Positions 28,108 through 37,439 of a stretch of 64,000 bases of DNA are shown here, one piece after another. Both the position numbers and the translations under genes were made by a program. The DNA is taken from UHGV virus genome UHGV-1359874; one strand, given 5' to 3'. Every line of letters begins with the position of its first letter. The first letter of the stretch is position 1. The notes under the pieces were generated by a model that was not told the DNA's origin, did no database searches, and worked only from the letters and a program-made list of their open reading frames with translations. The DNA comes from a virus.

Positions 28108-28211
28108 ACCAGAGAAGCGGTAGTTTAAGAGGAAAAAACGCTAGCTGGGTAATTAGCAGCAGAATTACGGGTTCGAGGTCCCGTCCGCTTCGCCATTTAA
28201 ATCAATAGGAG
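28108..28211 (+). ncRNA. tRNA-like element ending in G-CCA (7-bp acceptor gaagcgg/ccgcttc, D-arm gttt/aaac, T-arm-like hairpin; anticodon and T loops 8 nt)
   Basis: folded by hand; sits at 3' end of 350-nt ORF-free, promoter-driven region 27860-28211. Confidence 0.4.
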
Positions 28212-30079: not shown

Positions 30080-30991
30080 ATGGAAGAATTTATTGACTTG
30101 GAAGGCTTGGAAGATGAGAGCTTGGCTGAACTGGACAATAGAACAGAGGATGAAGCATCCTCTTTTTCTGTCTCTAGTTTGAAGCAATATTTGAAGAATA
30201 TTGGTTCGATCAATCTATTGACACCTGATGAGGAGATGCGGCTTGCGATCCAAGTCAAAGCAGGAGATAGCGCCGCCCGCGATAAGTTGGTAGAAGCAAA
30301 TCTACGTCTTGTAGTTTCTATTGCAAAGAAATATCAAAATATTGGAGTTCCGCTTCTCGATTTGATTCAAGAGGGTAATTTAGGTTTGATGCGAGCAGCA
30401 GATAAATTTGAACCTGATAAAGGTTATAAATTTTCTACTTATGCTACATATTGGATTAGGCAGTTTATTGGTAGAGCTATTGCTGACCAGGGTAGAACTA
30501 TTCGTGTTCCTGTTCACATGATTGATTCTATCAATAGTATGAAAAAGAAAGAGAATGAATTTGTTGTTGAGCATGGTAGAAAGCCTACTGATAAAGAACT
30601 TGCGGCAGTGCTAGGCGTAACCGCCAAAGAGGTTAAGGCTATGAAGAATTATTCCCAGAAGTCTTCTAGTCTTGATGTTCAGATTGGTGATGATGAGGAT
30701 ACATCTCTTGGTTCTTTGATCGAGGACGATATGTTTGACACGCCGGAAGCAGCATATAATAAAGTTGAAATTGTCAATACACTTAAATCTGTATTGAGTA
30801 CTCTTGATGAAAGAGAAGCGACTATTATTAAGATGCGGTTTGGCCTTGATGGTAAAGGGCCTAGAACTCTTGGTGAAGTAGGCGAAATTTTAAATCTTTC
30901 TAAGGAACGTATTAGACAGCTTGAAGCTAAGGCTTTGCGTAAACTGCGCCATCCTAGTAGAGCAAAAAAACTTCGTGACTTTATTGCTTAA
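30080..30991 (+). CDS. RNA polymerase sigma-70 family factor (regions 2, 3, 4)
   Basis: region 2 [35 protein letters not shown], region 4 [27 protein letters not shown]. Confidence 0.85.
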
Positions 30992-31008
30992 TTGATTTAT
31001 TAAAAAAT

Positions 31009-31037
31009 AAATGTTATAATATATACATAAGAAAGAG
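31009..31037 (+). promoter_or_regulatory. conserved extended -10 promoter element (TnTGTTATAATATATACATAAGAAAGAG); one of more than 20 copies
   Basis: near-identical copies at ~24895, 26815, 27835, 31389, 32310, 35035, 35835, 36875, 37355, 46360, 49482, 54025, 54235, 60480, 62808, 63243 (+) and ~13100, 15170, 20910, 21625 (-). Confidence 0.65.
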
Positions 31038-31079
31038 ATAAGAAATAAAAAATTCAAAACTTTTTCTTATGTATTATAT

Positions 31080-31156
31080 TCCCGTCTAGCTCAACTGGTT
31101 AGAGCATCCGACTTATAATCGGAAGGTTCGGTGTTCAAGTCACCGGGCGGGAACCA
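31080..31156 (+). tRNA. tRNA-Ile (anticodon UAU), CCA encoded
   Basis: hand-folded cloverleaf: acceptor tcccgtc/ggcggga, D gctc/gagc, loop cttataa, T cggtg-ttcaagt-caccg. Confidence 0.7.
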
Positions 31157-31264
31157 TAACTCTTAACATGGATTTTGCTGGTTTAAACTACTCCCGGCAC
31201 TTAGGTGATATGGAGCTTAATGGAAAAGAGTATAATAAGAAGCAAAGTAAAACCAGCTTTTAAT

Positions 31265-31351
31265 GCGGAGATAGTGTAACTGGTCAACACGCATCCCTTA
31301 CAAGGATGAGACATTTGCATTGTCAGGGTTCGAGTCCCTGTCCCCGCACCA
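31265..31351 (+). tRNA. class-II (long variable arm) tRNA; anticodon reads UAC as parsed; isotype uncertain
   Basis: acceptor gcggaga/tccccgc (1 mismatch), AC stem catcc/ggatg, loop cttacaa, 15-17-nt variable arm, T caggg-ttcgagt-ccctg, CCA. Confidence 0.5.
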
Positions 31352-31661
31352 CTAATTATAATATTTACTTTTTGACAATTTAAAAAATAAATGTTATAAT
31401 ATATACATAAGAAAGAGAAAGGAGCTTCTAAATGTATTACGAAAGTTATGCTTGTGAAATTCAGTCTGATGAAATTGCTAGTGTTTGGGCAGATTTTTAT
31501 AATGATATGGAGGCTTTTTTCAATGAAAATGAACAAAAGTGACAGAAAGAAATGCGACGACGAATTGCAAGAATATCTTCAGTTTAGACGTTGCGGATTT
31601 CAGGTAAAACCTAAAAAGGGACGAGGTTCTTATACTCGTAAAATTAAGCATAAATAAATAT

Positions 31662-31736
31662 GGCCCCATCTTCTAATGGTTAGGAAGCCGGCCTTTCACG
31701 CCGGCAATGCTGGTTCGAGTCCTGCTGGGGTCACCA
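31662..31736 (+). tRNA. tRNA-Glu (UUC)
   Basis: acceptor ggcccca/tggggtc, AC ccggc-ctttcac-gccgg, T-loop ttcgagt, CCA. Confidence 0.7.
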
Positions 31737-32066
31737 TGTACATTGTACTCTGAATTTAATCCGAGGCTGACAACGATTGAATTTAGAATGGTTTGTTTAG
31801 GAAACTACCATTTTAATAAGTATCCTTCTTGTTTCACTTGAATGTCCCTAACAAGTAAAAGAATGGCGATGTTCACCAAACCCAAGGTTAGAGGGTTGAC
31901 TTTCTGGACGAGGTCTTTACTCTCCATGGTTTTTAAGAAGAAAACCTAAAAAATAGAAAAGATAAGTTTGTAAGGCAAGGGTTAGATCGAAACTCTTCCA
32001 GCGGGTCTGGGTTTGTAGCTTTACCCCACTTCCCGCCAAAAGCTACAATTTCATATTGCGCTGGTG

Positions 32067-32140
32067 GAGCAATGGTAGCTCGCCGCTTTCATAGGGCGGA
32101 GACGAAGTTCAAATCTTTCCGGGCGCAACCATTGGGACAT
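32067..32140 (+). tRNA. tRNA-Met/Ile2 type (CAU)
   Basis: D gagc/gctc, AC ccgct-ttcatag-ggcgg; acceptor and T stems each carry one mismatch. Confidence 0.5.
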
Positions 32141-33029
32141 TTTGTCTCACCTTTTAATGAGTTTTAGTGAGCCTTCTCGGGGATATGGCTCCTGGTTGAA
32201 AAATTGCTTCTACCTGAACCCCGCTAACCTTTTTTAACGGAGACTAAAGAATATAGTTCAAATGTTTTATAACAGAACGCCGTTTATATACAAAGTCTTT
32301 TGATTTCTTAAAAAATATATGATATAATATATATGTAATCAAGAGATAAGCAACTGATATTAGCCGCCCTCCGCTGAATAAGCCTGGCAGTTGCGATTTC
32401 GACTAAGAGCTATGTTGAACCTTGAAAATTTCTGTAACTCAGTGAAGAACGCACACCAGCGTGCTGAGAATCCGACCCTGCTTACGGGTTTCCAAGAGTT
32501 TCTTATTTAGAAGGATACTTCTAAATGGGATAGAGTTAAATGCGGTGACGTATTTAAACTCCATCAAACGGTGGACTTGGAAGGGTGGATGTGCAGATAT
32601 TATCGCAATCAAAGGCAGTTGTCTTATCGCGGTCATAATAGAAAGTTCGTTTAACAGACGGGCCGAATCCTAGTTAGGTAGGAGCTGGTTACTCTTACAA
32701 TCCTAGGAAATACCAACAAGATCGTTTGCTGTGATGTTAAAGTAATTTAACTATAAGATAAGGTCAGACGTACAAGTAGCTCAAGGCATTTGAAGATGGT
32801 TTCATACTAAATTAGCTGATAATGAATTATTATAAGAATAATTTTCTGAATGGTGAGTGAAAGTTGCTCGTAGTCAGTCGAGTACAGGATTTGACGAGTT
32901 ATCGTTGGAATAAGAAGTTAGGGGTCATGACCCGAAGCTCAGACTTATTTCCCTGTTAGCCTAATATGATTGAAGATAATTATTTGTAGGGTGAAGGCCC
33001 ACAGAGTTTTTTGGTTCAGTTGAATATAT

Positions 33030-33341
33030 GCCGCGGTGGCGAAATTGGTAAACGCAATGGACTTTTGACTTAGCAAACGTTAAAAGAGAGTGCCTAGAAG
33101 GAAACTTTTAGAGTAGAAACTGGCTAAAACGGCGAATGGCTAAGAGAACGCCGTGCTAAATTTCAAGAGTAATCTTGAATAAATGTGTAGAGAGCATACA
33201 CCAGTTGCCTAAGTTCTTATGAATATGGTAAAGACGTGCTCCAGACTACAACGTATCTTTTGATACGGCCATGGTGACATGGAGTAGTAAGAAAATCCAT
33301 CGGCTTCGGCCTTGGGGGTTCGACTCCCCTCTGCGGCACCA
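33030..33341 (+). tRNA. tRNA-Leu (UAA) interrupted by a 227-nt group-I-like intron (33065-33291) between anticodon-loop positions 34 and 35
   Basis: 5' half: acceptor gccgcgg, D-arm, AC stem atgga + ctt. 3' half: aaaa + tccat, class-II variable hairpin ggcttcggcc, T ggggg-ttcgact-cccct, acceptor ctgcggc, A-CCA. Intron has R-like element CAGACTACAACG, P8-like hairpin ccatg-gtga-catgg, ends in G. Confidence 0.7.
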
Positions 33342-33559
33342 CCAAATTAAAATAATCAAGGAAATTAAAGCCATTTTGTAAAGGAACGTACAAAGGTCGA
33401 GTCGTAAGAAAAACAAAAGTAGTCCGTAAGGAATGGTAAACTTGATATGACCAAGTAAGTTATTGCCAGTTGATTATTTTAATTTTTTACTTATCTATCC
33501 AAGAGTAGAATAAGCTGAATCTGCGGCGAGGCGGATGTAAACAATACCTCGTTAAATAT

Positions 33560-33635
33560 TGCCTTGTAGTCCAGTTGGTAGAACGGCGGACTGTTAATCC
33601 GTATGTCGTGGGTTCGAGTCCCACCGGGGCAGCCA
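33560..33635 (+). tRNA. tRNA-Asn (GUU)
   Basis: acceptor tgccttg/cggggca, AC loop ctgttaa, T gtggg-ttcgagt-cccac, CCA. Confidence 0.7.
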
Positions 33636-33664
33636 TAAATCTTTTTAAATTAGGAGGTGAAAAA

Positions 33665-33901
33665 TTGAAGATTCGTAATCTAAAGGACATTAATTCTTTT
33701 AAAAATGCTATTGCGCAGTGTCATGGAGAAGTCTGGCTTGAATCTGTATATGGTGATAAGTATAATTTAAAGTCTGAACTTTCTCAGTATGTTGCTATGG
33801 CGGATTTGCTAAGAGATAAGAAAGAGAATTTAGAATTGTTTGCTAGACTTCCTGAAGATCAAGCTATTCTAATGGATTTTCTTAGAACTCTTGAAGATTA
33901 A
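33665..33901 (+). CDS. small hypothetical protein (~78 aa, TTG start); listed ORF 33575..33901 overlaps tRNA-Asn so its 5' part is not coding
   Basis: RBS aggaggtg 7 nt before TTG at ~33665. Confidence 0.4.
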   Translation: MKIRNLKDINSFKNAIAQCHGEVWLESVYGDKYNLKSELSQYVAMADLLRDKKENLELFARLPEDQAILMDFLRTLED

Positions 33902-33913
33902 TTTCTTCAATAT

Positions 33914-34052
33914 GCGTTTATAGCTCAGTTGGTAGAGCACCGCACTTGTTAGGATAGTTTAAAGAAAAATCTCTTTGAGGATATAAGTTCAAATCTTATT
34001 TCTAACTCCATTAATGCGATGGTCGGGAGTTCGAGTCTCCCTAAGCGCACCA
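33914..34052 (+). tRNA. tRNA (probably Lys, UUU) carrying a 63-nt tRNA-like minihelix insert (33948-34010) in the anticodon loop
   Basis: outer: acceptor gcgttta/taagcgc, canonical D-arm tagctcagttggtagagc, AC stem ccgca/tgcga, T gggag-ttcgagt-ctccc, A-CCA. Removing 33948-34010 gives loop cttttaa. Insert: stem gttagga/ttctaac (7 bp, perfect), T-arm ataag-ttcaaat-cttat, T-CCA. Confidence 0.55.
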
Positions 34053-34246
34053 TTAAAATCTTATATAGACACATACAGCAATGAATATTTTAATAGCTTT
34101 TAAAAAATATTCACTTTTTACTGTGATTTTTATATTGATGGTTTGTTTTTATTCTTTCATTTTGTTTGACCCCTCCTTTCATTACAAATTTGTTTGAGTG
34201 TCTAGTTTAAAAAATAAAAAAGTAAGTATAATATAAAAGAAAAAAT

Positions 34247-34331
34247 GAGCGAGTGTTGGAATAGGAATACAACTCTGCCTTAGAAGCAGAGGTCGAAAGG
34301 CATAAGGGTTCGAGTCCCTTCTCGTTCACCA
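34247..34331 (+). tRNA. tRNA-Leu (UAG)
   Basis: acceptor gagcgag/ctcgttc, AC tctgc-cttagaa-gcaga, long variable arm, T aaggg-ttcgagt-ccctt, CCA. Confidence 0.7.
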
Positions 34332-34386
34332 ACTGTGAAAATCATGCGTGTTTATTTCACTAAACACATTGTAATAGCCAAATTAT

Positions 34387-34477
34387 CTTGAGGTACCCAA
34401 GTGGTTGAAGGGGGCGCATTGCTAATGCGCTAGTAGGGTAACACCTAGCGAGAGTTCAAATCTCTCCCTCAAGGCCA
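34387..34477 (+). tRNA. tRNA-Ser (GCU)
   Basis: acceptor cttgagg/cctcaag perfect, AC gcgca-ttgctaa-tgcgc, long variable arm, T gagag-ttcaaat-ctctc, G-CCA. Confidence 0.7.
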
Positions 34478-34506
34478 TAACTTTTATCAAAAGGAGAATT
34501 ACGCCA

Positions 34507-34647
34507 ATGTTTACTATTGAACAGTCTATTGCTGCTAAGAAGAATCGTCTGAATAAATTGATTGGACGCGGCGATCGTAATGTTAAGTGTCCTGGAGTTA
34601 TTCGTAAGTTGCGGCGAGAAATTCGCAATCTTGAAACTCAGCGTTAA
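34507..34647 (+). CDS. small basic protein (~46 aa) inside tRNA island
   Basis: ATG with RBS aaaaggagaa; under ORF-track size cut-off. Confidence 0.35.
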   Translation: MFTIEQSIAAKKNRLNKLIGRGDRNVKCPGVIRKLRREIRNLETQR

Positions 34648-34660
34648 TCGCTGAGAATAT

Positions 34661-34755
34661 GCGTCCGTACCGAAATGGTTATAACGGCCTAGCCTTGAAA
34701 GCTTGTGTGTCAGCTTGTATCTGACATGGGGGTCCGAATCCCTCCGGGCGCGCCA
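34661..34755 (+). tRNA. tRNA-Ser (UGA)
   Basis: acceptor gcgtccg/cgggcgc, loop cttgaaa, long variable hairpin gtcag/ctgac, unusual T-loop tccgaat. Confidence 0.55.
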
Positions 34756-34780
34756 TTTAGACCTTTACAGCAATTATTTT

Positions 34781-34833
34781 TTCTAAGAAGAATTGGGTTC
34801 CATGTGTCGGTGATTCGAGTTCATCCTAGAAGG
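34781..34833 (+). ncRNA. free-standing mini tRNA-like element (terminal stem ttctaag/cctagaa 6/7 bp + T-arm ggtga-ttcgagt-tcatc; no D or anticodon arm)
   Basis: hand fold; preceded by recurrent leader motif acagcaatt. Confidence 0.35.
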
Positions 34834-34839
34834 TAAAAC

Positions 34840-34920
34840 TTCTTGTAGCTCAGTTGGTAGAGCAATGATTATTTAGAACTTATGGGTCTAGTTAAATATG
34901 GGCGGGACGCTGCCCATTAT
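34840..34920 (+). pseudogene. truncated tRNA (5' acceptor cttcttg + canonical D-arm tagctcagttggtagagc; no matching 3' half)
   Basis: D-arm identical to that of 33914 tRNA; no complementary acceptor strand before tRNA-Pro. Confidence 0.4.
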
Positions 34921-34996
34921 CCGGGTGTAGCGCAGTTGATAGCGCACAGGTTTTGGGTACCTGGGGTCGTGAGTTTAAGTCTCACCACTCGGACCA
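34921..34996 (+). tRNA. tRNA-Pro (UGG)
   Basis: acceptor ccgggtg/cactcgg, AC caggt-tttgggt-acctg, T gtgag-tttaagt-ctcac, A-CCA. Confidence 0.7.
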
Positions 34997-35102
34997 TCTA
35001 GGTGAATCCACATTTCACATATTTTATTGACAAAATTAAAAAAATTTGTTATAATATATATAGAAAAAACAAAGAAAGTAATTTTGTTAATGGAGAAAAG
35101 TT

Positions 35103-35288
35103 ATGTATATTTGTCCAACTTGTAACAAAAGTTTTGATACTGAGGAAAGAATCCAAAAGCATTTCTTAAAGTGTTGGAAAGAAAAAAATCCTTATTATCA
35201 GTCTAAGCCAGCTCCTAGAAGTGAAGATGTTGAGACTGTTGAAATTAATGATGATGTAGCAAACTTTTTTAATTCTTTAATGCGGTGA
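35103..35288 (+). CDS. small C2H2-like zinc-finger protein
   Basis: CPTC...HFLKC pattern; extended -10 motif at ~35035. Confidence 0.45.
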   Translation: MYICPTCNKSFDTEERIQKHFLKCWKEKNPYYQSKPAPRSEDVETVEINDDVANFFNSLMR

Positions 35289-35294
35289 TGTAAA

Positions 35295-35648
35295 ATGCAG
35301 GAAGTAAAAATTAAAACACATTTAATAATTACCTCAATTCATAATGAATTTAATATGAACTGGTGTGGTAAGATTATTAATACCAAACCTAAGTTTGAAA
35401 ATAATAAACCTGTATTTGTCATTATTGGAAGTCTTGGACGAATGGAAGTAAATACTGTTGACATGAAATATCTTGAGGAATGTGCTAAGAAACTCACATA
35501 TCCAAGAGGTAGACAAGCAGTTACCACTGATAAAGCAAGAATTTATATTGTTGAAGAAGATGGTAAAGAAACTTTGATGGGTGTTTTAACTCATAATAAT
35601 GTTAAGCAGTATGCGCCAATGTTTGATCCAGTCGGATACAGGAATTAA
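35295..35648 (+). CDS. hypothetical protein (117 aa)
   Basis: ORF track. Confidence 0.5.
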   Translation: MQEVKIKTHLIITSIHNEFNMNWCGKIINTKPKFENNKPVFVIIGSLGRMEVNTVDMKYLEECAKKLTYPRGRQAVTTDKARIYIVEEDGKETLMGVLTHNNVKQYAPMFDPVGYRN

Positions 35649-35657
35649 TCTTTTTAT

Positions 35658-35803
35658 AGGGTAATAGCCAAGTGGTAAGGCATGGGACTTTCAAGATTTA
35701 GTATAAAGAAGTATTTCTATTATGAATAGAAGGTATTGGTTCAAATCCAATAATCTTGACTAGACTCCCAGATGCGTTGGTTCAAATCCAACTTACCCTG
35801 CCA
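35658..35803 (+). tRNA. tRNA (Gln UUG or Glu UUC after excision) carrying a ~71-nt tRNA-like minihelix insert (35692-35762) in the anticodon loop
   Basis: outer: acceptor agggtaa/ttaccct perfect, D gcc/ggc, AC stem tggga/tccca, T gttgg-ttcaaat-ccaac, G-CCA. Insert: stem caagatt/aatcttg (7 bp perfect), tagtataaagaag..., T-arm attgg-ttcaaat-ccaat, A-CUA; homologous to insert at 33948. Confidence 0.55.
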
Positions 35804-35984
35804 TATAAAAAATAAACAAAAAAAATGATTTTTATTAAAATTTTTGATATAATATATATATAAGATAAAGAAAGACACTCACAGCAATTTTTTTATGGTT
35901 TACAAAAAATTCTGCAAAAATTTTTTAAGAAGGTTCGATTCCTTTAAATAATGTGTCTTGGTTATTTAATATATGCGCGAGTGT

Positions 35985-36070
35985 CGGAATGGTAGACGAG
36001 GTGGTCTCAAAAACCACTGCGATAATTCGCATAAGGGTTCGAGTCCCTTCTTGCGCACCAGCGGGAACCC
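35985..36070 (+). tRNA. tRNA-Leu (CAA)
   Basis: acceptor gcgcgag/cttgcgc, AC gtggt-ctcaaaa-accac, long variable arm tgcgataattcgcat, T aaggg-ttcgagt-ccctt, A-CCA. Confidence 0.7.
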
Positions 36071-36130
36071 GCAACAATTAAAAACATTATTTTGGAAGTC
36101 ATTTTAACCTTCCAAAAAAATCGTAAATAT

Positions 36131-36205
36131 GCCGAGTTAGTTTAATGGGAAAACAATCCTCGTTTGCGGATTATGATAAGTTCGATTCTTATCACACGGC
36201 CATGT
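36131..36205 (+). tRNA. irregular tRNA or tRNA-like (possible UUU anticodon in an 8-nt loop; one acceptor mismatch)
   Basis: D gttt/aaac, AC aatcc-tcgtttgc-ggatt, T ataag-ttcgatt-cttat, no encoded CCA. Confidence 0.35.
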
Positions 36206-36301
36206 ATGATTCGGATAGTATAATGGAATTACAATCGGTTGTAGACCGGAAGATACCAGTTCGATTCTGGTGAAGAATCTTTAAATTGATTTTTTTAAAA
36301 G

Positions 36302-36347
<46 letters not shown>

Positions 36348-36405
36348 AGACAAACAGCAATATAATATTTTTAACTGGCTATTGTTAAAAAGTCTCTTGT
36401 AACTC

Positions 36406-36480
36406 GCTAGTGTGGCGCAACGGTGGCGCAGTCGATTTGTAATCGAAGGGCTGGAGGTTCAATCCCTCTCACTAGCTCCA
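36406..36480 (+). tRNA. tRNA-Thr (UGU)
   Basis: acceptor gctagtg/cactagc perfect, D gcgc/gcgc, loop tttgtaa, T ggagg-ttcaatc-cctct, T-CCA. Confidence 0.7.
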
Positions 36481-36821
36481 GCTTTCATAAACACATCTTT
36501 TAAAATTAAATTAGACCCCAACAGCAATTTTAAGCTCTGATAAAGCAGTGATTATGGGTTCAAATCCTATTGTAACAATTTTTGTTATATAGCATAATGG
36601 TAATGCACTAAAAAGGGGTCTAGATATGCACCTATCGTATAACAGTTAATATAGAAGCCTTCCAAGCTTCGGACGCGAGGGCGGTACTCGCTAGGTGCTC
36701 CATAAGACGTAAACCGCAACTTTTTAAAAATAATAAGATTTCAAGCATTTGAGAAGTATTGAAAAAAGATTTCTTCCTAAGATACGTCTTGAAAAAATAA
36801 TATTATAGAGATCTTTTTAAA

Positions 36822-36858
36822 GCCCATTAGCGAAAAGTAGCTAACGGGCAATTTTTTT
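36822..36858 (+). terminator. rho-independent terminator closing the tRNA island
   Basis: gcccattagc...gctaacgggc + T7. Confidence 0.6.
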
Positions 36859-36919
36859 ATATATTGATTTTTTATTAAATTTTTGTTATAATATTAATAG
36901 AAGAGAGAGGGGATTTTAA

Positions 36920-37255
36920 ATGAAACTTTGGATTGATGATGTGCGGCAGCCGCCTGATGAGTCTTGGACCTGGGTAAAAAGTGTGGATGAAGCTAAGATT
37001 TATTATACTCAATGCACCCGTCCTTATCATAATGTGTATGTTACACCTGCTATTACTGAAATTTCTCTTGACCATGATGCTGGTGATTATGCTAGTATGG
37101 GTGGCGATTATATTCGTTTTTTAGACTGGCTTGAGAAAAAGGCGATTATTAAGAATTATCAGATTGATACACTTTTTACTATTCATTCTAGAAATCCAGT
37201 GGGAAAATATAATATGGAAAATATTATCCGCAAAAATCATTGGAGGTATATGTAA
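36920..37255 (+). CDS. hypothetical protein (111 aa; MKLWIDDVRQPP...ISLDHDAG motif)
   Basis: ORF track; RBS agagagggg; followed by possible 27-aa TM peptide ORF 37257-37340. Confidence 0.5.
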   Translation: MKLWIDDVRQPPDESWTWVKSVDEAKIYYTQCTRPYHNVYVTPAITEISLDHDAGDYASMGGDYIRFLDWLEKKAIIKNYQIDTLFTIHSRNPVGKYNMENIIRKNHWRYM

Positions 37256-37439
37256 AATGACTGAGTTTGTTATTGGTGTTTGGGTTGGTGTAGCCTGTTA
37301 TGGGGTTTGGCGAATTATTTATGAAATTTTTTTTCATTGATTTTTAAAAAAATTTTTGTTATAATATATAATATAAAAACAAGAGATAAGAATCAATAAA
37401 AGGTTATGAAAATAACCATCTCAGTAAAGGAGAAAATAT

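Follow-up and report, generated by a model that had tools for sequence, protein, structure and literature searches.

ROOL is among the few natural RNAs known to form closed cages without protein. The cages described are RNA-only octamers, formed by the ROOLs of env-120, E. faecalis and Firmicutes CAG:227, or hexamers, formed by that of L. salivarius; within a half-shell, subunits are tied by base pairs between loop L8 and an adjacent junction (B4), among other contacts, and the half-shells are joined by a symmetric kissing loop (B6), which is L18 in one numbering and L15 in the other (PMC12286853, PMC12990946, PMC12515178). In L. salivarius, ROOL is very abundant yet non-essential (PMC12286853, PMC5643018). 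GOLLD (RF02032) is likewise a large ornate phage RNA that lies beside transfer RNA (tRNA) genes and forms RNA-only cages (PMC12286853). Here, we have analyzed a stretch without long open reading frames (ORFs) at 32345-33029 of the virus genome UHGV-1359874 (64,000 nucleotides (nt), the whole of which is called the window and to which all positions refer). An earlier note, made from the letters of the window, had proposed a large structured RNA for this stretch and had guessed at ROOL or GOLLD, given the phage tRNA cluster beside it. We found that the stretch is a full-length ROOL RNA, a new member of a known family, which is ordinary for that family save for a conserved extra hairpin on its 5′ side and an unusual cage-joining loop.

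A full-length ROOL RNA in a phage tRNA island

In a covariance-model scan (cmsearch), RF03087 (ROOL) was matched at 32414-33017 on the plus strand, over 604 nt, with 322.9 bits against a gathering threshold of 99.1 (E ~1e-74). The match spans model positions 1-574 of 574, neither end being truncated, and it was the sole non-tRNA match at gathering thresholds when the whole window was compared with Rfam. The guess of the earlier note was thus borne out, with ROOL as the family. The limits proposed for the RNA turned out to cover the whole unit, that is, a 5′ element, the ROOL core and a 12-nt spacer (Table 1), and the two hairpins quoted at that time are both genuine ROOL helices. A permissive scan of 31000-37000 (E ≤ 1) returned the same ROOL match and no competing Rfam family for the stretch. 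The other models that had been suggested for comparison (GOLLD, HEARO, group II intron, RNase P and tmRNA) were also run, and none reached its gathering score anywhere in the window; a tmRNA trace in 31000-37000 was a 15-nt fragment match within the T-arm of the tRNA-Leu only.

The coding potential and folding of the region agreed with this assignment. The longest ORFs between 31700 and 33400 encode 70 amino acids (32461-32673, plus strand, GTG start) and 65 amino acids (32439-32636, minus strand), so the claim that no ORF exceeds 70 amino acids holds for this region. The minimum free energy of 32350-33029 corresponded to z = -2.69, and none of 20 dinucleotide shuffles folded as stably. The neighbouring gaps (31740-32060 and 32140-32300) had been described as non-coding as well, and their ORFs indeed have at most 44 amino acids. 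As candidates for further structured RNAs they were rejected. They have no Rfam match, their folding z values are -0.89 and +0.91, and their identity to a sister contig described below is 90% and 78%, compared with 93% for ROOL; thus, no structured RNA is indicated there.

Support for the fold from related loci

Relatives were retrieved with a 19-base ROOL core motif, which gave 72 viral, at least 120 metagenomic and 22 genomic loci (individual loci are given below by L numbers). Two metagenomic sister contigs, L022 (130.6 kilobases (kb), IMG/VR) and L116 (128 kb, ENA), are ~94% identical to the window over the tRNA island. All 10 relatives tested with Rfam had a full-length ROOL (282-363 bits) inside a tRNA island.

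In the window's ROOL, 124 of 151 mapped model pairs are standard. To examine the fold, the Rfam structure of the window was projected on structure-blind MAFFT alignments of 11 and then 24 distinct copies. Standard pairs were found in 68.6% (11 copies) and 73.6% (24 copies) of the cells, compared with 39-50% when the 3′ partners were slid by 1-3 columns, the range for the 24 copies being 40-50%. Changes on both sides were present in 99 of 151 pairs (11 copies) and 117 of 155 pairs (24 copies), and the observed pairing values were reached by none of 500 shuffles. The ROOL fold is supported independently of the Rfam model, with compensatory changes, and the conservation and covariation in related genomes that the earlier note had proposed to look for are both present. 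Even between the window and its sisters, two pairs have changed with compensation (32887:32953, GC versus UA; 32910:32949, AU versus GC). The remaining differences lie mostly in the variable linker, whose variable part (32785-32843) is the most divergent segment between window and sisters and includes insertions and deletions; the linker corresponds to a disordered loop inside the cage in published structures. Columns invariant in the 24 copies included GUG (32442-32444), GAUA (32514-32517), AAUAG (32637-32641), UAUAA (32752-32756), AGUAGC (32775-32780), UUCUGAAUG (32844-32852), GUGAAAGUUG (32857-32866) and CUCAG (32938-32942).

Several relatives carried additional RNAs. ROOL, GOLLD and drum RNA were found in one tRNA island of L009 (7558-8229, 12269-12780 and 2541-2667, respectively), and ROOL was accompanied by tmRNA in L043 (779-1392 and 3426-3737). 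A partial OLE match in L015 (10084-10167; 53.5 versus 50 bits, model positions 439-592) is probably spurious.

Table 1. Features of the ROOL locus in the window
Feature	Position	Strand	Description or basis
Terminator-like hairpin	32133-32149	+	TGGGACATTTTGTCTCA then CCTTTTAATG; directly 3′ of tRNA-Met; consensus scan
Promoter, sigma-70-type, extended -10	32300-32328	+	Consensus scan
Promoter -35	32300-32305		TTGATT
Promoter TG	32320-32321		TG
Promoter -10	32323-32328		TATAAT
5′ accessory element	32350-32407	+	58 nt; directly 5′ of ROOL; outside RF03087
Outer stem of 5′ element	32350-32356 with 32388-32394		7 base pairs
Inner hairpin of 5′ element	32370-32387		GCU-GAAUA-AGC flanked by CC/GG
Conserved tail of 5′ element	32395-32406		Single-stranded; GAUUUCGACUAA
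ROOL core	32414-33017	+	RF03087 full-length match
Apical stem-loop, P7 (Kretsch)/P10 (Wang)	32645-32663	+	GUUCGU/ACGGGC; 6 base pairs, 7-nt loop; 'long' form
Outer stem, quoted as 'cctag...cctagg'	32668-32673/32703-32708		ROOL helix
B4 contact	L8 UGGU 32686-32689 and junction ACCA 32712-32715	+	Motif read in window
A/U-rich variable linker loop	32785-32852	+	Large model hairpin loop with insertion; 3′ end is the conserved UUCUGAAUG (32844-32852)
P18/L18 hairpin	32921-32933	+	GGGG-UCAUG-ACCC; terminal hairpin of last long arm; mapped via covariance-model alignment
Hairpin quoted as 'ggggtcatgaccc'	32921-32933		ROOL helix; terminal P18/L18 hairpin
ROOL-tRNA spacer	33018-33029	+	12 nt; 12/12 identical in sister
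tRNA-Leu(UAA), split	33030-33341	+	CCA encoded; in-silico splicing, then ARAGORN
tRNA-Leu exon 1	33030-33064		
tRNA-Leu intron	33065-33291		227 nt
tRNA-Leu exon 2	33292-33341		

Candidate contacts between subunits

Both partners of the B4 contact, which is intermolecular in published cages (PMC12286853), could be read in the window. Over the 24 copies this pairing was present in 93.8% of the cells, with the compensatory forms UGGA/UCCA, UGGC/GCCA and UGAC/GUCA.

For the contact between half-shells, the reference is env-120, in which L18 comprises residues 563-567 and is closed by 562-568, P18 running from 557-574 to 562-568 (PMC12286853 supplement). According to the authors of that structure, L18 is too conserved for a covariation test (PMC12286853). 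Among 164 copies surveyed by us, 127 have UCGCU as this loop, 18 have GACG, 9 have UAGCU and 1 has UCGCG(A). The loop of the window, UCAUG(A), is alone among these copies; that of either sister is UCGCU. All loops of 5 nt have a self-complementary dinucleotide at their centre (GC, or AU in the window), and every departure at position 2 or 5 gives complementarity between positions 2 and 5 of two chains (A/U, C/G, C/G). Because adjacent or near-adjacent bases of a loop are unable to pair within one chain, this is the pattern that an intermolecular L18:L18 helix predicts. The change in the window keeps, and even extends, the self-complementarity, positions 2 and 5 becoming C and G. By our rough estimate, which ignores phylogeny and involves few independent events, the chance of the pattern is about 1 in 135. 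As a single sequence, the L18 loop of the window is compatible with kissing and arguably supports it; a change from palindrome to palindrome is the kind of contact evidence that has been lacking, since the loop is otherwise too conserved.

The arm that ends in this loop (P17-P18, 32884-32960) has about 10 differences from both sisters, which match each other there. Its divergence is ~14%, compared with 3-4% elsewhere in the core, and the changes in its stems are all compensated. The arm could be a recombination patch or could have undergone fast co-evolution with its L18 loop.

The number of subunits may be suggested by the apical stem, an 'ultrashort' form of which has been linked to the hexamer of L. 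salivarius (PMC12990946). Since this stem is long in the window, an octamer appears likelier than a hexamer. In L022 a U-to-C change at 32647 converts a U·G pair of the same stem into C:G. By analogy with the published structures, the ROOL of the window would form a cage.

An accessory hairpin upstream of ROOL

The 58-nt element directly upstream of the ROOL core had no Rfam match at E ≤ 10 when 32329-32425 was searched with permissive filters. It is a clade-specific, covarying and unannotated hairpin element, which is common to the sisters and to more distant relatives, irrespective of what precedes it, be it a promoter or a tRNA 3′ end. The outer stem has 6-7 base pairs (bp) and at least eight different sequences, all of them perfectly complementary. 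A linker of 15 nt is present on the 5′ side only, and the inner 3-bp stem with its GAAUA loop covaries (GCU/AGC, GGC/GCC, GGU/ACC, UCC/GGA). Of the 11 class-1 copies compared, 10 have exactly the same tail after the hairpin, GAUUUCGACUAA, and L009 has two positions changed in it; 5-12 variable nt separate the tail from P1.

Because MAFFT mis-registers the outer stem, a covariance model of the element (R1) was built from six in-register copies. R1 matched the window once, with 83.3 bits, and scored 56-64 bits for copies outside the training set and 24-25 bits for weaker ones; it had no match beside prophage-type ROOLs. In an alignment fitted to R1, which inflates the figure, 97.9% of the cells were paired, compared with 23-50% in slid controls, and 9 of 12 pairs changed on both sides. 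The perfect 6-bp stems came from a structure-blind search and are independent of the model-fitted alignment. In addition, an element-only pattern was used to scan IMG/VR and identified six contigs (three of them new), each with ROOL within ~10 nt downstream.

Other searches around the element were less successful. A looser DNA pattern gave 52 loci, among which R1 confirmed only the known ones, the others being chance matches. A k-mer complementarity scan of 11 clade members offered GCGAU:AUCGC as a partner for the tail, which was unconvincing because AUCGC is also common in ROOLs that lack the 5′ element. A pairing of UUCGACU in the tail with AGUUGAA just 3′ of ROOL, taken from a minimum-free-energy fold, was rejected as a general feature, as the 3′ sequence is absent in other element-bearing relatives. 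It should also be mentioned that two facing positions below the inner hairpin (32373/32385) co-vary as identical bases, mostly C/C, with U/U in L022 and L207 and A/A in L009, which suggests a homo-base pair or a shared third partner.

Three roles may be considered for the element. It could be a handle at the surface that a partner binds, it could be a signal for processing or for stabilisation, or it could be an antitermination or folding signal similar to boxB-boxA. The last of these is based on resemblance and is to be taken as a lead.

Probable transcription and processing of the ROOL-tRNA unit

The extended -10 promoter that had been reported upstream of the stretch was confirmed, its -35 and -10 hexamers being separated by 17 nt (Table 1), and the predicted transcription start lies near 32335. 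The promoter belongs to a near-uniform family in this genome: TTGAnn-N14-16-TGnTAnAAT has 30 matches in the window, where fewer than one would be expected by chance according to our composition estimate. Other sites of the family include 30992-31020, 31372-31400, 35027-35055, 36864-36892 and 37337-37365, often followed by atatat. The box at the ROOL gene is identical in L022 at 39 of 39 positions, whereas the 165 nt upstream of it are only 78% identical. The same box was also observed upstream of ROOL in distant relatives, for example L150, L105, L154 and L118. The hairpin directly downstream of tRNA-Met may mark the end of the preceding transcription unit; the evidence for it is weak, as terminator-like sites in the region are no more numerous than in shuffles.

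The stretch ends, as the earlier note had stated, at an intron-containing tRNA-Leu, and this split tRNA begins 12 nt after the ROOL core. In the consensus scan, no terminator-like site was found between ROOL and the tRNA (33018-33029). On the basis of this short spacer without a terminator, we infer that ROOL and the tRNA are probably co-transcribed and that, as general tRNA biology would suggest, the 3′ end of ROOL would be made by an RNase P cut at 33029/33030. The distance from ROOL to the next tRNA is likewise 8-12 nt in 7 related loci, and introns are present in several of these tRNAs. Across 25 related loci, all tRNAs are co-oriented with ROOL. L015, L150 and L217 each have an intron-containing tRNA 8-11 nt after ROOL.

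As the enumeration of splice junctions with ARAGORN was ambiguous, the canonical junction of the tRNA-Leu was then tested directly. The intron lies between U34 and A35, with U at the end of the 5′ exon and G at the end of the intron, as is canonical. Against the group I model RF00028 it scored 26.2 bits, below the gathering threshold of 50, with E 8e-5 and over the full length of the model (371 nt searched), and it is 99% identical in a sister. The intron appears to be group I-like.

The phage and its tRNA island

The window encodes both subunits of a type II topoisomerase, an NAD-dependent ligase, PhoH, an RNA ligase and tail-fibre-like proteins, together with a sigma-70-family factor (30080-30991), the exact gene of which was also found in two Logan assemblies. 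About 17 tRNA genes lie between 31080 and 36700. A blastn search with 32300-33030 gave no match among GenBank phages, and the topoisomerase subunit is at most ~33% identical to anything among them; thus, the source is a large, low-GC, uncultured phage without a close relative in GenBank. The phage looks lytic.

A number of further observations were made on the island and its surroundings. Around tRNA-Asn (33560-33635) and in 34008-34331, which includes the tRNA-Leu at 34247-34331, the window is unlike its sisters; hence the tRNA island is mosaic. At its end the island has a homing-endonuclease-like gene with GIY-YIG and NUMOD3 (37867-38520), beyond which an HNH endonuclease-like gene (46404-46961) is found. 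Outside the island, at 28114-28195, ARAGORN reported a tRNA whose anticodon has 4 bases (gggt). Several tRNA-like sequences were matched by Rfam only and not called by ARAGORN: 33948-34007 (60 nt, 37 bits), 36132-36200 (34.4 bits), 36216-36271 (44.2 bits) and 36628-36699 (23.6 bits). Finally, a weak match to YrlA, a Y RNA-like family, was observed at 34801-34868, between tRNA-Ser and tRNA-Pro (30.5 bits versus a gathering threshold of 69, E 0.0013), and a gene with DUF2828 and DUF7788 (38527-39639), labelled 'RNA-binding protein' in PHROGs, lies ~3.7 kb 3′ of it. The protein had no sequence relative in the PDB. Together, the two may form a Ro/Y-RNA-like (Ro60-like) pair.

A model for the ROOL unit and its alternatives

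We consider it very probable that the ROOL gene has a strong sigma-70-type promoter of its own and is the first to be transcribed in a ROOL-tRNA unit within the tRNA island of the phage. The primary transcript would start near 32335, and an RNase P cut at the 5′ end of tRNA-Leu would free the 3′ end of ROOL near 33029. The resulting RNA of ~680 nt would fold into a flat ROOL monomer, and monomers would self-assemble, without protein, into a closed homo-oligomeric shell, likelier an octamer than a hexamer, whose half-shells would be tied by B4-type contacts and joined through L18:L18 kissing. Each subunit would expose one 5′ element at the outer face of the shell, where it might be a handle for a partner. 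This placement is suggested because P1 pairs the ends of the RNA and because, in the work of Ling et al. as reported in PMC12515178, RNAs fused to the 3′ end of ROOL, including a tRNA precursor, are displayed radially with the octamer undisturbed. Our best guess is that the phage tRNAs and the particle are made together during infection and that the particle serves as a multivalent scaffold or container.

A more elaborate version of this model is speculative, and we hold it to be doubtful. It proposes, for this clade of phage ROOLs, a two-part particle, in which the external GNRNA-type hairpin and its 12-nt tail recruit a partner, plus a palindromic L18 that acts as an 'address'. The partner could be a protein, RNA polymerase or antitermination factors, or another RNA, and half-shells would join only RNAs with the same palindrome (CAUG here, GC or AGCU elsewhere). 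If true, the address would keep the cages of related co-infecting phages apart, and it would supply the natural covariation of B6 that the structural papers could not find.

Several points weigh against reading the locus as a cage-forming ROOL with a 5′ domain. In this clade, P1 and the helices at 32597-32616/32960-32983 agree poorly with the consensus (18-53% of the cells paired); at these places the fold may be partly different, or the sequences misaligned. The L18 variant is present in one assembly and was not found in IMG/VR, so an assembly error is possible; against this stand the other changes in the arm of L18, which are compensated. The predicted number of subunits comes from one stem length and a statement in a review, the pairing figure of the 5′ element is inflated as described above, and the phage itself is known from assemblies alone.

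Among the alternatives, the one that survives best is that the RNA is mainly monomeric, for example a ribozyme or a tRNA-processing or tRNA-protecting factor, with a 5′ element that is a mere processing or stabilising signal, later removed or inert: for example a tRNA-like minihelix cut by RNase P or RNase Z, or a decay-blocking hairpin at the 5′ end. Initially, 'sophisticated biochemistry' was suspected for ROOL (PMC5737381), and the E. faecalis ROOL also occurs as monomer and tetramer in vitro (PMC12990946). The shape of the element recalls an acceptor stem plus T-arm, since it has a 7-bp outer and a 5-bp inner stem with abutting 3′ strands and the linker all on the 5′ side, and in L207, L080 and L176 it directly follows a tRNA. 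However, the loop of its inner hairpin is GAAUA, of 5 nt, and is not a T-loop, and the hairpin contains a bulge. The element is recognized as a tRNA neither by ARAGORN nor by the tRNA model of Rfam, and a processing signal alone would leave the conserved 12-nt tail unexplained. Conserved or covarying B4 and L18 are hard to explain for a monomer, and we regard this alternative as improbable.

It is still less probable, to a degree that makes it a very small concern, that the locus is a decaying, non-functional remnant of ROOL in the tRNA island. The poor fit of P1 and of two internal helices, together with an L18 loop off the family consensus, could be read in this way. Nevertheless, the score of the window lies inside the range of its relatives (282-363 bits), the differences from the sisters are compensatory or fall in the linker, and identity is 100% in the promoter box and in the 12-nt junction, whereas it is 78-90% in the neighbouring spacers. 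The change in L18 also retains and extends self-complementarity, as described above.

That the stretch encodes one or more small proteins (for example by the 70- or the 65-amino-acid ORF), its RNA structure being incidental, has almost no probability left: both ORFs exist, but the RF03087 match is full-length (E ~1e-74) and substitutions keep base pairs over the whole 600 nt, inside the ORFs too, so that the covariation effectively refutes this explanation and the ORFs are the usual by-product of 600 non-coding nt. Another class of large RNA (GOLLD, group II intron, HEARO/OMEGA RNA, RNase P RNA or tmRNA) can be dismissed with the same near certainty, as no such family reached its gathering score in the window, although GOLLD has the same phage and tRNA context and L009 holds both ROOL and GOLLD.

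As a ROOL, the copy in the window adds little to the family. Its value lies in its setting, in which ROOL has a strong and well-defined promoter and heads a tRNA operon in a large, lytic-looking phage, as a natural fusion with a 3′ tRNA in the same arrangement as has been engineered in vitro. It also has a covarying 5′ domain that was apparently left out of current models and constructs and that would be exposed at the surface of the cage. Both this element and the L18 variant, although modest as observations, might be of use to cage specialists.

Comparison with described RNAs

The inner hairpin of the 5′ element, a short stem with a pentaloop of G-N-R-N-A type (GAAUA), resembles the boxB hairpins of lambda and P22 and the boxB-boxA antitermination signals of rrn leaders. 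The likeness extends to the conserved single-stranded 12-mer that follows it and to the position at the start of a long untranslated transcript, although the tail does not match the boxA consensus. The position of the element is fixed relative to ROOL and not to the promoter. The phi29 pRNA (~120-170 nt), which forms rings on the portal and has a role in DNA packaging, is another phage RNA that builds homo-oligomers, through intermolecular loop-loop pairs in which loop complementarity sets the specificity for partners. These pRNA oligomers are mentioned in PMC12990946. It has no relation to ROOL in sequence or structure. GOLLD differs from ROOL in fold and stoichiometry and has no match in the window.

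The intron of tRNA-Leu agrees with the group I introns of tRNA-Leu(UAA) in cyanobacteria, plastids and some phages in its site between U34 and A35, the preceding U and the terminal G, whereas its RF00028 score is below the threshold (26.2 versus 50).

Compared with the ROOLs of E. faecalis, L. salivarius and the rumen env-120 solved by cryo-electron microscopy, the RNA of the window departs in several respects. Relative to RF03087 it has the extra 58-nt covarying 5′ element, of which we found no mention for the published constructs (compared by their descriptions, in which they start at P1, and not by their sequences). Its L18 is UCAUG(A) and not UCGCU or UAGCU, P1 and the helices near 32597-32616 are off the consensus, and it resides in a large, lytic-looking phage with its own sigma gene and not in a prophage or megaplasmid. 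In other respects it agrees with them. The same helices are present and covary, the same contact between L8 and the junction is found, and the islands UUCUGAAUG...GUGAAAGUUG, GCUCAGAC, AAUAGA and UAUAAGA as well as the variable internal linker are shared. The context of phage and tRNA genes is also shared, and the tRNA that follows at the 3′ end in the window resembles the 3′ fusions engineered on known ROOLs.

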